The translations under genes and the position numbers were made by a program. Below, one piece after another: positions 38,654 through 52,601 of a stretch of DNA of 64,000 bases (within the stretch, counting starts at the first letter, position 1; the number at the start of each line of letters is the position of its first letter). Location of the stretch: the NCBI RefSeq assembly GCF_056746865.1, contig NZ_CM163382.1, one strand, 5' to 3'. The notes beneath the pieces were generated by a model. It did not search any database. It was not told the DNA's origin and saw only the letters and a list, made by a program, of their open reading frames with translations.

Positions 38654-40633
38654 TCAGAAGCGATAATCCACTGCCATAAAGTAACGACGTCCGTCTTCGT
38701 TATAGCTGTAGTCGTCACGACTGAGATCCTTGTCGCCAAGGTTCAGCACGCCTGCGCGCAGTTTGACGTCTTTAGTCACCTGCCAGGCCGCGCCGGTATT
38801 CCAGATGGTATAACCGCCAGGTGTTTTAGCCGTCGCGCTGTCGGCTCGTTTCTGCCCGGTATAGTGACCAGAAACATAGAATGACCAGTCTTCCAGCGCC
38901 AGCGGTTTCCAGTCCAGCGTACCGTTAGCGGTATGGAACGGCAGATCGGATAGCGGTTTGTTTTCGCCGTTGCTGACATCACGACCATCGTTGTAGGTGT
39001 AGTTGAGTGACAGTTTCCATTCATCGTTGAACGGAATTTTCAGTTCGGTTTCCACGCCCTGAATACGAGCTTTGTTAACGTTGTAGTAGCTAAATACCGG
39101 CACACCGTTCGCTGTAAAACCAACAAAGTTTTGGTAGCCCGGTGCAGCATTGACGTCAGACGTACGGCTGATGCTGATACGATCTTTCACATCGTTACGG
39201 AAAACGGTAACGCTGGATTCAACCCCTTCCAGCCAGCCTTCTTCACCCATGTAGTAAAGCCCCAGCTCCCAACTTTCGCTGGTTTCTGGTTTCAGATCCG
39301 GGCTACCCACAATCTTACATGCGCCACGGCAGGAATTGCTCGTCCAGTCAGGGCTAAGTTGCAACAGAGAAGGTGCTTTAAATGCCGTCGCCCAGCCCCC
39401 TTTCACCGTTACGGTGTCGGTGGCGTTATAAACCAGGTAGGCACGCGGACTCCAGTGTTCACCGTAGGTTTCGTGATCGTCCATACGCACGCCGGTCGTC
39501 AGCGCCAGCGGCTCGAAGATCCGCCATTCATCTTCCACAAACAGCGCGTACTGGCTGGCAGACGTTTTGGAGCTGGTTCCCCCGGTCAGGTTCACCGCAT
39601 CGCTAAGTTTGTCGTGACGCCATTCACCGCCAACCGTGAGAAACTGATTAATCGCCGTCAGCGGCAACGTGTATTTGCCGTCGACCGTATTGCTTTCGGA
39701 AGTTATCGGGCTGCTGTTGCCAGGGTTTTTGTTCTCGACTTTCTCACCGTAGTATTTCAGTTCGCTGGTGCCGTAATCCCAACGCCCATTATGGCTGACG
39801 GAGTAGTTCTAGCGTTCCAGGCGGTTTTTGTCCAGCGAGTCGGAATCACGATCCTGACGGTCGAAACCGTATCCGGCAGTAAAATCGTGATTTTGATTCG
39901 GTGTCCAGGCAAATTCGACATTGCCGTCGCGGCTGGAGAATCCTTCAATACGCGGCGTATCTCCGGTATCGGTGGTCGTTGAGTTTTGCGGGTCATCCTT
40001 TTCACGTTTTGCCAGGCTGCCGTAAGCTTTCATTCCCAGCACACCATCAATTAATGGTCCACTGGTAAAGAACTGACCGTTATAGGTATCACCGCGATCG
40101 CGATGTTCCTGAATGGTGGTATCGACGGTAACGGTACCCGACCATTTCTGACCGATTTTTTTGGTGATGATATTCACTACACCGCCGAGCGCATCGGAAC
40201 CGTACAGCGACGACATCGGGCCACGGACCACTTCAATACGTTCGATGGAATCGACCGGGATCCAGTTCAGATCGAAATCATTGTGGCGGAAGACGGCATT
40301 GCGGGAGTTAACGCGTTTACCGTCGACAAGAATCAGGGTGTAGCTGCTGTCCAGACCACGAATACTAACGCCCTTACGGTTATCCCCTTCGTTCGTCAGT
40401 TGTACGCCAGGCACTTCTTTGAGGACATCCTTCAGATTCTGTACCGGTTTTCGCTGCAGGTCTTCCTGGGTAATGACGCTGATACTGGCGGGTGCATCTT
40501 TAAGGTTTTGTTCAACGGAAGATGCAGTGACAACCATCGTTTCGCCATCATCATCGACCGCTAACACAGGCCATGCACAAGAAATAGCGGACAAACACAG
40601 CCCGACCCGTACGAAAGGGTTCAACCTAAACAT
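38654..40633 (-). pseudogene. cirA: TonB-dependent catecholate siderophore / colicin I receptor, interrupted by an in-frame TAG (minus-strand codon at 39809-39811)
   Basis: Two ORFs (39809..40633 and 38654..39667) lie in one frame across 1980 nt; translation reads ...[17 protein letters not shown]...; N-terminus [25 protein letters not shown] and C-terminal ...YFMAVDYRF are typical of a TonB-dependent receptor. Confidence 0.8.
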
Positions 40634-40799: not shown

Positions 40800-40845
40800 A
40801 ACGATAATGCAAACGATAACAATTATCAATCCAAATGATAAATTT
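40800..40845 (-). promoter_or_regulatory. Putative Fur box(es) in the cirA promoter region
   Basis: GATAATGCAAACGATAACAATTATCAATCC resembles the GATAATGATAATCATTATC Fur consensus; about 170-200 bp upstream of the cirA start. Confidence 0.55.
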
Positions 40846-46654: not shown

Positions 46655-46752
46655 TGTTGCCGGATGCGACGCTTAACGCGTCTTATCCGGCCTACAAATC
46701 AGGCAATTTCAGCAAGTAAATGTAGGCCTGATAAGCTTGCGCATCAGGCAAT
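46655..46752. repeat. REP pair (BIME-like) between convergent yeiI and nupX
   Basis: TTGCCGGATGCGACGCTTAACGCGTCTTATCCGGCCTAC and GTAGGCCTGATAAGCTTGCGCATCAGGCA. Confidence 0.8.
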
Positions 46753-46757
46753 GACAC

Positions 46758-48008
46758 TCAAGCTAAACCAATAAAGAACCCGGCAATGGTCGCACTCATC
46801 AAGTTGGAAAGCGTCGCCGCCGCCAGCGCGCGTAAACCAAGCTGGGCGATTTCCGGCGCACGGTGTGGCGCAACCGCAGAAAATGCGCCAACCACCACCC
46901 CGATAGAACCAAAGTTAGCGAAACCGCACAACGCGAAAGAAATAATCGCCACGGTTTTAGCATCCAGAGTGCCAGCTGTTTGCAGATAAGGTGAGAAATT
47001 GAGGTAAGCGACAAATTCATTTATTGCCAGCTTCTGTCCAATCAAACTCCCGGCAAGATTCGCATCACTCCAGTCAACCCCCATCACCCATGCCAGTGGA
47101 GCCAACAGGTAACCTAAAATGGACTCCAGCGAGGCATGTTCAAAACCAAACCAGCCGCCAACGCCGCCGATAATACCGTTAATCAACGCAATTATTGCAA
47201 CAAATGCCATCACCACTGTCGCCACACCTGCGGCGATTTTCAGCCCGGTCATTGCCCCTGTAGCGGCGGCTTCAATAATGCTTTTTGGCGGTGTTTCGGT
47301 GAAAGAGAGGTTATTAAAGGAAACCTGCGAAGATTCCGTAGCCGGGCTTAACAGGCGGGCAAACAAGATCCCGCCGGGGATCGCCATTAACGATGCCGCT
47401 AGCAGATATTCCACAGGCACGCCCAGTGCGGCGTAACCAATCATTGTCGAACCAGCAATCGAGGCCATGCCACTACAAATAGCCGTAAATAATTCATTGC
47501 GATTCAGACGATCGATAAAGGGTTTGACGATTGCCGGAATTTCGTTTTGCCCGAGGAAAATGGTAGTGACCGCGACGAATGACTCAATCTTGCTGATATT
47601 CAATGCTTTCTGGAATATACCGCCGAGAATGCGAATTAAGATCCCCATCACACCGATGTAGTAGAGAATACTCACCAGTGCTGTAACGAAGATAATTGCC
47701 GGTAATACCCTGAAACCAAAGATAAATCCAGCGCCATCAAATAAGGTGTCCATTTTCGGTCCGACCAGAGAACCAAAGATAAATGCGCTACCCGCGTCGC
47801 TGTACGCCATCACTTTATGCACGCCAAAAGCGACTTTTTCAGCGACCCAACGCCCTGGCGGTAACCAAAGCATAATGCCGCCAATCACGACCTGTAACAC
47901 TAACGCCGCGCCAACGGTACGCAGGCTGATCTTCTTCTTGTTTACTGACAGCAAAAACGCAATTGCCAGCAATACCACCATTCCCAGAACACTTCTCATG
48001 ACATCCAT
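46758..48008 (-). CDS. nupX: NupC-family nucleoside permease
   Basis: 416-aa multi-TM ORF; paralog of the ORF at 51258..52508. Confidence 0.85.
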   Translation of the reverse strand: MDVMRSVLGMVVLLAIAFLLSVNKKKISLRTVGAALVLQVVIGGIMLWLPPGRWVAEKVAFGVHKVMAYSDAGSAFIFGSLVGPKMDTLFDGAGFIFGFRVLPAIIFVTALVSILYYIGVMGILIRILGGIFQKALNISKIESFVAVTTIFLGQNEIPAIVKPFIDRLNRNELFTAICSGMASIAGSTMIGYAALGVPVEYLLAASLMAIPGGILFARLLSPATESSQVSFNNLSFTETPPKSIIEAAATGAMTGLKIAAGVATVVMAFVAIIALINGIIGGVGGWFGFEHASLESILGYLLAPLAWVMGVDWSDANLAGSLIGQKLAINEFVAYLNFSPYLQTAGTLDAKTVAIISFALCGFANFGSIGVVVGAFSAVAPHRAPEIAQLGLRALAAATLSNLMSATIAGFFIGLA

Positions 48009-48107
48009 AGTTATTATCTCTTCATGTCATTTTGGGCGACGGCTTTCTGCCCATCAGAAATAGCCGGGCCTGCATCTTGCGATACTGACCCGGCTTGTTA
48101 TCAACAC

Positions 48108-48252
48108 TTAATGGGTTTTGATGTAGCCGCGCACGCACTCTTCGACTAATCCCCAGAACCAGTCGGTATCAATAGTGATGCCGACTTTGGTATTAGCGGG
48201 CTTGCCAAGAACGCCCAGCTCGTCGCAGACAGTACGCCCATAGCAAGGGCCA
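48108..48252 (-). pseudogene. rihB: 3' fragment of pyrimidine-specific ribonucleoside hydrolase gene, separated from its 5' part by an IS insertion
   Basis: Minus-strand translation ...[47 protein letters not shown] continues exactly from the ...MYVEVDVNS end of the 5' fragment across the IS. Confidence 0.85.
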
Positions 48253-48307
48253 CTGAACCGCCCCGGAAATCCTGGAGACTAAACTCCCTGAGAAAGAGGT
48301 AAACAGG

Positions 48308-48634
48308 ATGACTAAAAATACTCGTTTTTCCCCCGAAGTCCGTCAGCGGGCGATTCGTATGGTTCTGGAAAGTCAGGATGAATATGACTCACAGTGGGCG
48401 GCAATTTGTTCCATTGCCCCAAAGATTGGCTGTACGCCGGAGACTCTGCGTGTCTGGGTTCGCCAGCATGAGCGGGATACCGGGGGCGGTGATGGTGGGC
48501 TCACCAGCGCTGAACGTCAGCGTCTGAAAGAGCTGGAACGTGAAAATCGTGAACTGCGCCGCAGTAACGATATCCTTCGCCAGGCTTCCGCTTATTTTGC
48601 GAAGGCGGAGTTCGACCGCCTCTGGAAAAAATGA
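48308..48634 (+). CDS. IS3-family transposase OrfA (HTH DNA-binding)
   Basis: 108-aa [26 protein letters not shown]... with leucine-zipper-like C-terminus; A6 run at its 3' end. Confidence 0.9.
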
Positions 48635-49521
48635 TGCCACTGCTGGATAAGCTGCGTGAGCAGTACGGGGTCGGACCGGTATGCAGCGAACTGCATATTG
48701 CCCCGTCAACGTATTACCATTGTCAGCAACAGCGACATCATCCGGATAAACGCAGTGCCCGTGCGCAGCACGACGACTGGCTGAAGAGAGAGATACAGCG
48801 CGTATACGATGAAAATCATCAGGTGTACGGTGTGCGTAAAGTCTGGCGTCAGTTGTTACGGGAAGGAATCAGGGTGGCCAGATGTACAGTGGCACGTCTC
48901 ATGGCGGTTATGGGACTTGCCGGTGTTCTCCGGGGTAAAAAGGTCCGTACGACCATCAGCCGGAAAGCCGTTGCCGCAGGCGACCGCGTAAACCGTCAGT
49001 TCGTGGCAGAACGACCTGACCAGCTGTGGGTGGCTGATTTTACTTACGTCAGCACATGGCAGGGCTTCGTCTATGTGGCGTTTATCATTGATGTGTTTGC
49101 CGGATACATCGTGGGGTGGCGGGTCTCATCGTCTATGGAAACGACATTCGTGCTGGATGCGCTGGAGCAGGCGTTGTGGGCCCGTCGTCCGTCTGGCACC
49201 ATCCATCACAGCGATAAAGGCTCTCAGTATGTGTCACTGGCCTATACGGAGCGACTAAAAGAAGCCGGATTACTGGCATCAACAGGGAGTACAGGCGACT
49301 CGTATGACAACGCGATGGCTGAGAGCATCAATGGTCTTTACAAAGCGGAGGTAATACACCGTAAGAGCTGGAAAAACCGTGCAGAAGTGGAACTGGCCAC
49401 ACTAACGTGGGTGGACTGGTATAACAATCGACGATTGCTGGGAAGGCTGGGCCATACTCCTCCGGCAGAAGCAGAAAAAGCTTATTATGCTTCCATCGGA
49501 AACGATGATCTGGCAGCCTGA
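48631..49521 (+). CDS. IS3-family transposase OrfB (DDE integrase catalytic domain)
   Basis: 296-aa ORF in the -1 frame relative to orfA, overlapping at AAAAAATGATG; DDE-type core; probably expressed as an OrfAB fusion by -1 frameshifting. Confidence 0.9.
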
Positions 49522-49563
49522 GTTCACAGATAAAACACTCTCCAGGAAACCCGGGGCGGTTCA

Positions 49564-50362
49564 CACTGTTGACGTCCACTTCGACGTACATCTCCTGGGT
49601 TTTAATGCCATCAGGGTTAATCAGATAACCGATGCAGGTGGCGTCATGCACCGGGCCGCCAGCCAGGCCGTAGTTTTCGAACTGCGTTTTTAGAGTGAAA
49701 TTCATGATGTCGCTGAACAGCTCTCCGGCGGGGCCGCCTACCCTTTCCATCCGGGCAATCACGTCCGGGGTGCAAACAGTCTGGTTGGTGAGATCGAGGC
49801 CCATCATCACCAACGGAACGCCGGAGGTGAACACCACGCGTGCGGCTTCCGGGTCGGCAAAGATGTTGAACTCGGCAGATGGGGTGAAGTTGCCTGTACC
49901 GTAAGCGCCGCCCATTAGCACAATTTCACGGATTTTCGGCAGGATCGCGGGTTGCATACGCATTGCCACCGCGATATTTGAAAGCGGACCAACCGGCACC
50001 AGAGTGATATCACCATCGCTTGCCATCAGGGTATCAATGATATATTTCACCGCATGAGTGCTTTCTGCCTGGCGGGTCAGCGGCCCGAATACCGGGCCAT
50101 CAAGTCCGGTTTCACCGTGAATATTATCGGCAACGATTTGTTGACGCATAATGGGCTGTGGCATCCCCGCATAAACCGGAACATTAATCTCCAGTTTCTG
50201 GCAAACATTCAGGCCATTAATTAATGTTTTATCAAGCGTCTGATTACCCGCCACAATGGTGATGCCTAATAAATCAATCACCGGATGTTTCGCGGCCATC
50301 ATTATGGCAATAGCATCATCATGACCCGGATCACAATCCAGAATAATTTTTCTCTTTTCCAT
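49564..50362 (-). pseudogene. rihB: 5' part of pyrimidine-specific ribonucleoside hydrolase gene (N-terminal DCDPGHDD motif), truncated by the IS; the ORF runs on into IS sequence
   Basis: ORF 49328..50362 begins [22 protein letters not shown]... (nucleoside hydrolase signature) and switches to unrelated IS-derived residues after ...VDVNS. Confidence 0.85.
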
Positions 50363-51204: not shown

Positions 51205-51252
51205 TAGCGCGATTGCCGGATGCAACGCTTAATAAGGCGTACATCCGGCAAT
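51205..51252. repeat. REP element between convergent yeiL and psuT
   Basis: GATTGCCGGATGCAACGCTTAATAAGGCGTACATCCGGCAATG. Confidence 0.75.
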
Positions 51253-51257
51253 GAAAC

Positions 51258-52508
51258 TCAAGCTAAACCAATAAAGAACCCGGCAATGGTCGCGCTCATC
51301 AGGTTGGAAAGCGTTGCTGCTGCCAGCGCCCGTAAACCAAGCTGGGCGATTTCCGGCGCGCGTTTTGGCGAAATAGCCGAAAATGCGCCAACGACAACAC
51401 CGATAGAACCAAAGTTCGCAAAACCACAAAGCGCAAAGGAGATAATCGCCACGGTTTTCACTTCCAGCGTGCCGCCCGTTTGCAGGTATGGGGAGAAACT
51501 CAGGTAAGCGACAAATTCGTTAATCGCCAGTTTCTGCCCAATCAGGCTACCCGCAAGGTTGGCATCACTCCAGTCCACACCCATGATCCACGCCAGCGGT
51601 GCCAGCACATAGCCAAAAATACTTTCCAGAGAGGCATTGGCGAAACCAAACCAGCCGCCAATTCCGCCGATAATGCCGTTGATCAGCGCAATAATTGCGA
51701 CAAACGCCATTACCACCGTCGCTACACCAGCGGCGATTTTCAGCCCGGTCATCGCACCGCTCGCCGCTGCTTCGATAAAGCTTTTTGGCGGCGTTTCGCT
51801 GAACGACAGATTTTCAAATGTGACCTGCGAAGGCTCGGTTGCCGGGCTAAGAATACGTGCAAACAAAATACCGCCAGGGATCGCCATCAGCGATGCCGCT
51901 AACAGGTAGTCAATTGGTACGCCCATTCCGGCATAACCAATCATCATCGAACCAGCAATGGACGCCATCCCGCTACAAATAGCCGTAAACAACTCGTTGC
52001 GATTCATGCGATCGATAAACGGTTTAACGATCGCCGGGATCTCATTTTGCCCGAGGAAAATAGTAGTAACCGCAACAAAAGATTCGATTTTGCTGATGTT
52101 GAGGGCTTTCTGGAAAATGCTGCCAAGGATGCGAATCAGCAGCCCCATCACGCCAATGTAGTACAGCAGACTGATGAGCGCAGTAACGAAGATAATCGCC
52201 GGAAGTACGCGAAAGGCGAAGATAAAGCCCGCGCCATCAAACAGGACATCCATTTTCGGCCCGACCAATGAACCAAAAATAAAGGCGCTACCGGCATCAC
52301 TGTAAGACATCACTTTATGAACGCCTAATGCCGCCTGTTCTACTGCCCATTTTCCCGGTGGGAAGTAGAGCATGATGCCACCAATAGCGATTTGCAGCAG
52401 CAGTGCGGCTCCAACCGTGCGCAAACTGATGCCCTTTTTATTCACTGACAACAGAAATGCTATTGCCAGTAACACCACCATCCCCACAACACTTCTCATT
52501 ATATCCAT
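51258..52508 (-). CDS. psuT: NupC-family nucleoside (pseudouridine) transporter
   Basis: 416-aa ORF, paralog of nupX; upstream of psuG/psuK on the same strand. Confidence 0.85.
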   Translation of the reverse strand: MDIMRSVVGMVVLLAIAFLLSVNKKGISLRTVGAALLLQIAIGGIMLYFPPGKWAVEQAALGVHKVMSYSDAGSAFIFGSLVGPKMDVLFDGAGFIFAFRVLPAIIFVTALISLLYYIGVMGLLIRILGSIFQKALNISKIESFVAVTTIFLGQNEIPAIVKPFIDRMNRNELFTAICSGMASIAGSMMIGYAGMGVPIDYLLAASLMAIPGGILFARILSPATEPSQVTFENLSFSETPPKSFIEAAASGAMTGLKIAAGVATVVMAFVAIIALINGIIGGIGGWFGFANASLESIFGYVLAPLAWIMGVDWSDANLAGSLIGQKLAINEFVAYLSFSPYLQTGGTLEVKTVAIISFALCGFANFGSIGVVVGAFSAISPKRAPEIAQLGLRALAAATLSNLMSATIAGFFIGLA

Positions 52509-52601
52509 AATGATTTTCCCTTCATGCCAGTAAACCCGGCGTCAGCGCCAGGTTTTGGTATGCTTGATGAGTACGGGCGACGGCTTTCTGCCCGTCAGAA
52601 A

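Follow-up and report, generated by a model that had tools for sequence, protein, structure and literature searches.

The window, that is, the whole 64-kb stretch of DNA that was analysed, carries on its minus strand a copy of cirA, the gene for the colicin I / catecholate siderophore receptor. The gene lies in the order lysP-cirA-yeiG, as in annotated genomes, with yeiG in convergent orientation. Its reading frame runs from an ATG at 40633 to a TGA at 38654 and comprises 660 codons with one internal stop, a TAG at 39811-39809 on the minus strand, which is codon 275. In a comparison with 5426 complete E. coli genomes, the 1980 nt found a match in the annotated cirA of 5425, the best matches being identical at 1979 of 1980 positions. 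The features of the locus are listed below, with the evidence for each in brackets.

38654..40633, minus strand: cirA (colicin I / catecholate siderophore receptor) pseudogene (translation; 1979/1980 identity to the annotated cirA of 118UI and many others; Pfam; PDB)
39809..39811, minus strand: premature amber TAG at codon 275, Q275* (translation; comparison with 118UI and 2017C-4173W12; same T in assemblies L027 and L028)
39812..40633, minus strand: N-terminal fragment of 274 aa, still translatable, comprising the signal peptide, the region of the TonB box, the entire plug and the first part of the barrel (ORF listing; Pfam limits)
38654..39808, minus strand: untranslated C-terminal remnant, which encodes the greater part of the beta-barrel along with the extracellular loops (translation; Pfam)
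40801..40833, minus strand: promoter-like site of cirA, TTGATA and TATCGT with 17 nt between them, with overlapping repeats that resemble a Fur box (sequence match; identical to 118UI and 2017C-4173W12)

When codon 275 is restored to Gln, Pfam recognises a Plug domain (PF07715) at residues 44-152 (E=2.8e-33), wholly before the stop, and a TonB-dependent barrel (PF00593, TonB_dep_Rec_b-barrel) at residues 217-632 (E=1.3e-63). In the PDB, residues 26-659 align with the solved colicin I receptor, 2HDF/2HDI, and also with 9NN6 (E=0). The marks of a TonB-dependent transporter are thus present, namely a Plug domain, a barrel domain in the same frame, and an orthologous position with a Fur-box-like promoter. 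What is missing is an uninterrupted frame from which all 22 strands of the barrel could be made, as TAG stands at codon 275. The cirA of the window is a pseudogene of the CirA family and no working member of it. A chance stop in a random frame was ruled out by the 1979/1980 identity to intact cirA and by the end-to-end alignment with 2HDF.

The first-pass annotation had described a 1980-nt cirA frame that is open except for one TAG at 39809-39811, and translation shows both the coordinates and the description to be exact. Its naming of the gene agrees with the synteny, with the two Pfam domains and with 2HDF. It had also taken the native codon to be CAG, changed by one C-to-T step, and this is what comparison with 118UI reveals: a single CAG>TAG transition, in which the base at 39811 on the plus strand is A in the window and G in wild type. 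Because of this change, the ORF listing cuts cirA in two, a 274-aa N-terminal ORF (39809-40633) and a 337-aa remnant (38654-39667) that starts at a TTG at 39667 and lacks a signal peptide. In public assemblies, gene callers likewise report the Q275* product as a Plug-only protein (PF07715) and the remnant as a separate barrel-only ORF.

Upstream of the gene, the promoter-like site TTGATA/TATCGT occupies 40829-40801. The best Fur-box-like match, at 40809-40827, agrees with GATAATGATAATCATTATC at 14 of 19 positions and is a putative site; a search with the 19-bp Fur consensus at no more than three mismatches gave no match. The integrity of the promoter was judged by base-for-base identity to wild-type relatives. 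By this measure the region is unaltered, as the earlier description of an intact promoter with a Fur box had it, the box itself being putative.

With its 1980 nt (659 aa), the cirA of the window falls into a minority class of alleles; about 553 of the 5425 genomes show at least 99% identity to it. Members of this class have an extracellular loop, encoded at 39101-39115 on the minus strand (cirA nucleotides ~1519-1533), that differs from the K-12 sequence, GFETGANGRRIPVF, with the loss of R513/R514; the main contacts R116, R436 and R490 are kept. R513 has been predicted to be a minor contact of microcin V (PMC12511343). Judged on sequence comparison, the change is natural variation in a toxin-facing loop.

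Nearest relatives and inheritance of the stop codon

The window was aligned in full by local BLAST with the complete E. coli genomes of 118UI, an isolate from human urine, and of 2017C-4173W12; over 62.7 kb, two substitutions separate it from each. Those against 118UI lie at 39811 and 44228, the latter (yeiH A217T) being private to 118UI; those against 2017C-4173W12 lie at 39811 and 18752, the latter in pbpG and private to that genome. With respect to these two genomes, G>A at plus-strand position 39811 is the sole substitution private to the window over the 62.7 kb. Within cirA and about 1.5 kb on each side (5.1 kb), exactly one base separates the window from 118UI, a C>T on the coding strand. 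A weak hint at an ST69-like lineage comes from a report in which contigs of an ST69 isolate had 118UI and NMBU-W13E19 as their closest matches (PMC7952442).

A joined-pieces summary had presented the window as a more distant relative, at 99.4% identity and 95% coverage. This was rejected when local BLAST gave near-identity plus one IS. In the same window, nupX and psuT (46742-48026 and 51242-52526) are paralogues about 80% identical in BLAST and some 3 kb apart, and such paralogous pieces probably explain the lower figures of the summary.

The exact 274-aa product of the window (P0003, 3 contigs) was looked up in a public assembly collection. An ENA assembly (L027, ERZ21879008), represented by a 286.6-kb contig whose record name gives a coverage of ~67x, is 100% identical to the window over 20.8 kb and carries the TAG. 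A second contig (L028), from Logan run ERR11476726, is 100% identical over 15.7 kb and carries it as well. The relation between the window and the ENA assembly can be specified further from a second lesion of the window.

48108-50362, minus strand: rihB (ribosylpyrimidine nucleosidase) with an IS inside (BLAST against relatives)

The interruption of rihB is a 1310-bp copy of IS1203/IS629 at 48254-49563, private to the window with respect to 118UI, 2017C-4173W12 and the ENA assembly. It is 100% identical to O157:H7 copies, with terminal repeats TGAACCGCCCCGG and a 3-bp CAC target duplication. The ENA contig runs uninterrupted through the rihB site, and since it lacks the IS, it must come from a different sample than the window. 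In addition, because it has the TAG and no IS, the TAG is the older of the two lesions within the clone. To judge from these alignments, Q275* is inherited within a small clone.

Recurrence of Q275* and frequency of other cirA nonsense alleles

Among 5426 complete E. coli genomes, the exact 61-mer with T is found in only four, SCU-106, 537-20, A1.S1.18 and GN4143. In all four, PGAP annotates cirA as a pseudogene with an internal stop at codon 275. Their alleles are of the K-12-like 1992-nt (663-aa) type, on four different flanking haplotypes. More generally, T at cirA nucleotide 823 occurs on 11 distinct cirA haplotypes, at least ten of them besides that of the window. The K-12-like 274-aa product (P0001) was present in 109 contigs and 160 database blocks; ten loci with this product (L006-L015), all of the K-12-like 'DTGETP' variant, show 35-554 SNPs per 19 kb in comparisons among themselves and with the window. 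Across cirA nucleotides 718-945, all 16 of 16 aligned sequences are identical except at position 823. Short-patch recombination, as opposed to recurrent mutation, could in principle have spread the allele, but would have required about ten separate transfers.

The wild-type context of the mutated base is ACGC[C]AGAA, that is, CCAGA rather than the Dcm site CCWGG, the mutated C being the inner one. By eye, the change disrupts a CTGG...CCAG palindrome, and no inverted or direct repeat that could template C>T was seen near codon 275. For comparison, 19 other hypothetical single-transition nonsense products, at codons 56-285, were looked up in the public assembly collection. Eighteen of the 19 were present, at comparable raw counts that include partial genes at contig ends and are a rough scale only. 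The following are raw contig counts of this kind, with contig-end partials included.

Q56*: at least 1000 (true CCAGG site)
Q60*: 228; R61*: 238; Q65*: 210; Q78*: 318
W124*: 191; Q162*: 226; W164*: 195; Q175*: 129; Q187*: 108
Q216*: 151; W243*: at least 1000; Q260*: 67
Q275*: 121 in total; W285*: 54

The CAG at codon 56 (40466-40468, minus strand) lies in a true Dcm site, CCCAGGA, and the contigs with its 55-aa amber product, at least 1000, are far above those of most other cirA nonsense products. This abundance could be due to a classical 5-methylcytosine hotspot, to clonal expansion or to contig-end noise.

Raw counts of this type have to be read with care, as an exact-protein look-up of a truncated product also returns genes that are cut by the end of a contig, and counts from short contigs are meaningless. 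For instance, two contigs recovered in this way (L029 and L030) end inside cirA codon 275 and have the wild-type C. The extent of the effect is seen with matched Gln>stop products of mglB, mglC, yeiH and the essential gene folE, control genes chosen because their proteins do not vary among the ten backgrounds retrieved. These gave 78-310 blocks, nearly all of them with contigs below 5 kb, and 'truncations' of essential folE alone appeared in 94 blocks, which sets a noise floor of about 80-300 'hits'. Because contig-end partial genes inflate raw look-ups, only long-contig counts were used further. The unit is a database block with a longest contig of 50 kb or more, an approximate measure that mixes clonal spread with independent origins.

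cirA, blocks with longest contig of at least 50 kb: Q275*, 23; Q162*, 48; Q187*, 18
Control genes, same measure: mglB Q142*, 0; mglB Q163*, 1; mglC Q173*, 1; yeiH Q124*, 1; folE Q143*, 0

By this crude long-contig comparison, cirA nonsense alleles are over-represented about 20-50x relative to matched changes in neighbouring genes. The enrichment fits recurrent selection for loss of CirA in natural E. coli, and Q275* is probably adaptive. Inferred as it is from database enrichment, selection by agents that target CirA is the best explanation of the recurrent nulls. That such loss alleles are selected had been proposed in the first-pass annotation, and the proposal is supported both by the excess of nulls over matched controls in public assemblies and by their documented role as a cause of resistance to cefiderocol, colicins and microcins (PMC9241927, PMC3879352, PMC12511343).

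Several other explanations have to be weighed against this one. The TAG might be a base-call or assembly error in a strain that really has CAG, and a single-base difference from otherwise identical relatives is what such an error would look like. The same T, however, is present in two independent assemblies identical to the window over 15.7-20.8 kb, one of them without the window's IS, which makes an error very unlikely; in addition, four finished RefSeq genomes have the identical change, and substitution errors are not the typical failure of polished assemblies. The earlier view that a homopolymer sequencing error is unlikely thus holds. Hardly more credible is that cirA is still functional through suppression of the amber codon (supE/glnV-type) or efficient read-through. 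The TAG is followed by an A, which, according to the context effects reportedly described by Bossi and by Miller and Albertini, is relatively favourable for suppression, and a suppressor that inserts Gln would bring back the wild-type residue. On the other hand, stable amber suppressors are generally regarded as typical of laboratory strains, and the nearest relative, 118UI, was isolated from human urine; the record of 2017C-4173W12 gives no source. The 64-kb window contains no tRNA gene and so lends the idea no support; glnV lies in another part of the chromosome, outside the window. Moreover, the allele recurs in many unrelated wild backgrounds beside every other kind of cirA truncation, which fits a null. 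Suppression is thus unlikely, and low-level natural read-through of UAG may take place.

Mutation bias is another matter. If codon 275 were a mutational hotspot, for instance for deamination of 5-methylcytosine, the allele would reflect that bias and say nothing about CirA function. In line with this, the same C>T lies on 11 haplotypes, the C that mutated is the inner one of CCAGA, which agrees with the Dcm site at four of five positions, and the Q275* 61-mer occurs in four complete genomes as against 1, 0 and 0 for matched controls in which Gln260, Gln330 or Gln361 is changed to amber, a small excess on numbers too low for significance. Nevertheless, the site is not CCWGG. The raw count of 121 is within the range of the 15 other nonsense sites tested (35-318 or more, contig-end partials included), and in long-contig blocks Q275* falls between Q187* and Q162* (18 < 23 < 48). 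With 18 of 19 other truncations at similar counts, the hotspot was set aside as quite improbable. The classical Dcm amber hotspots, reportedly found in the lacI work of Coulondre and Miller, are CAG codons within CCAGG. They resemble Q275* in that a CAG preceded by C becomes amber when its first base changes from C to T, but the Q275* site, CCAGA, is without the methylation site that defines them. Two further readings, that codon 275 is a mild hotspot and that truncations which keep the exported plug and TonB box are favoured through titration of TonB, are supported by small numbers at most and are, taken as a pair, very doubtful. If the second were true, titration of TonB by the periplasmic fragment would bring partial cross-tolerance to other TonB-dependent toxins.

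More weight is due to the possibility that the null is real and became fixed in a small clone by drift or hitchhiking, and not through colicins, microcins, phage or siderophore-antibiotics. The clone represents one event, which drift could explain equally well, and is seen in a handful of assemblies; the window has a second private disruption, IS1203 in rihB, as if neutral or mildly deleterious lesions accumulate here; and the sequence points to no selective agent. Against this, the change is the sole private substitution in 62.7 kb, where a stop in cirA would result from 209 of the ~188,000 single-base changes that are possible, a proportion to be read with the ascertainment that the site was flagged as a stop. 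Likewise, the ~20-50x excess of cirA nonsense in long contigs is measured against matched changes in neighbouring invariant genes, and drift is considered unlikely. The preferred reading, to which we assign a probability of about 0.86, is that Q275* is a genuine and recently arisen cirA loss-of-function allele, due to G>A at 39811 and inherited in a clone, and that it is one of very many independent nulls, a pattern best explained by recurrent selection.

Truncated product and expected phenotype

The translated product stops at residue 274 and retains the signal peptide and the whole plug but only 58 of the 416 residues of the barrel-model match, about the first seventh. With a stop after the plug, the 22-stranded barrel should be unable to form and, judging by domain content, no CirA receptor would be expected at the outer membrane; the allele is regarded as a receptor null because most of the barrel is lost. 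As the promoter is untouched, cirA is probably still transcribed under iron limitation and would give only a dead fragment. The 337-aa remnant ORF is likely inert because it has no signal peptide, and, with yeiG following cirA in convergent orientation, a polar effect is not expected.

Colicins Ia/Ib and microcin V all use CirA as their receptor and bind it in a common pocket flanked by R116, R436 and R490 (PMC12511343). In the inflamed gut, colicin Ib kills E. coli via CirA (PMC3879352), and natural resistance to microcins often goes together with mutations in genes for uptake, cirA among them (PMC10926693). The strain and its small clone, predicted to be without CirA, would be expected to withstand colicins Ia/Ib and microcin V. 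The loss of one catecholate siderophore route is also predicted, together with lower uptake of catechol-conjugated beta-lactams such as cefiderocol.

Comparison with known systems

Nonsense mutations that abolish cirA are a common and well-documented means by which E. coli evades colicins, microcins and siderophore-linked antibiotics, and the exact Q275* change is already a RefSeq-annotated pseudogene. The allele is real and clinically relevant, and it is also ordinary and already known. A by-product of more general use is the rough estimate of a ~20-50x over-representation of cirA nonsense alleles, obtained from long contigs against neighbouring genes. The closest known cases are the pseudogenes of SCU-106, 537-20, A1.S1.18 and GN4143, which have the same codon, the same base change and the same locus order as the window. 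They differ in belonging to the 1992-nt class and to separate flanking haplotypes, and none of them is in the window's lineage.

A further parallel is W243* (codon 243 at ~39905-39907), also a single-transition nonsense change in cirA with a plug-only product. This 242-aa protein of a K-12-like variant (P0066) is present in at least 1000 contigs, and its source records are Shigella flexneri and E. coli MS 69-1, which suggests a lineage-fixed cirA pseudogene. Besides the codon, the difference is that W243* is apparently fixed in a large lineage, whereas the window's Q275* is found in a small clone.

In Klebsiella pneumoniae, incomplete CirA is given for 1.27% of public genomes (PMC12054181); the receptor family, the class of lesion and the relevance to cefiderocol are the same, in a different species. 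No equivalent species-wide census of incomplete CirA in E. coli was found in the literature. For E. coli, the most informative comparison is with cefiderocol-resistant NDM-5 strains of ST167, ST405 and ST617, in which premature stops in cirA contribute to resistance and complementation with wild-type cirA lowers the cefiderocol MIC 8- to 16-fold (PMC9241927). As with Q275*, CirA is truncated and the receptor lost, although the truncated proteins have 109, 389 and 621 aa as against the 274 aa of the window. High-level resistance in those strains also needed NDM-5 and a YRIN/YRIK insertion in PBP3 (PMC9241927). Of this genotype, the window holds the cirA truncation in the form of Q275*, and ftsI and plasmid sequence lie outside its 64 kb. 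One uptake route for cefiderocol-type drugs would thus be missing from the strain, and this matters if a metallo-beta-lactamase or a PBP3 insertion is also present.
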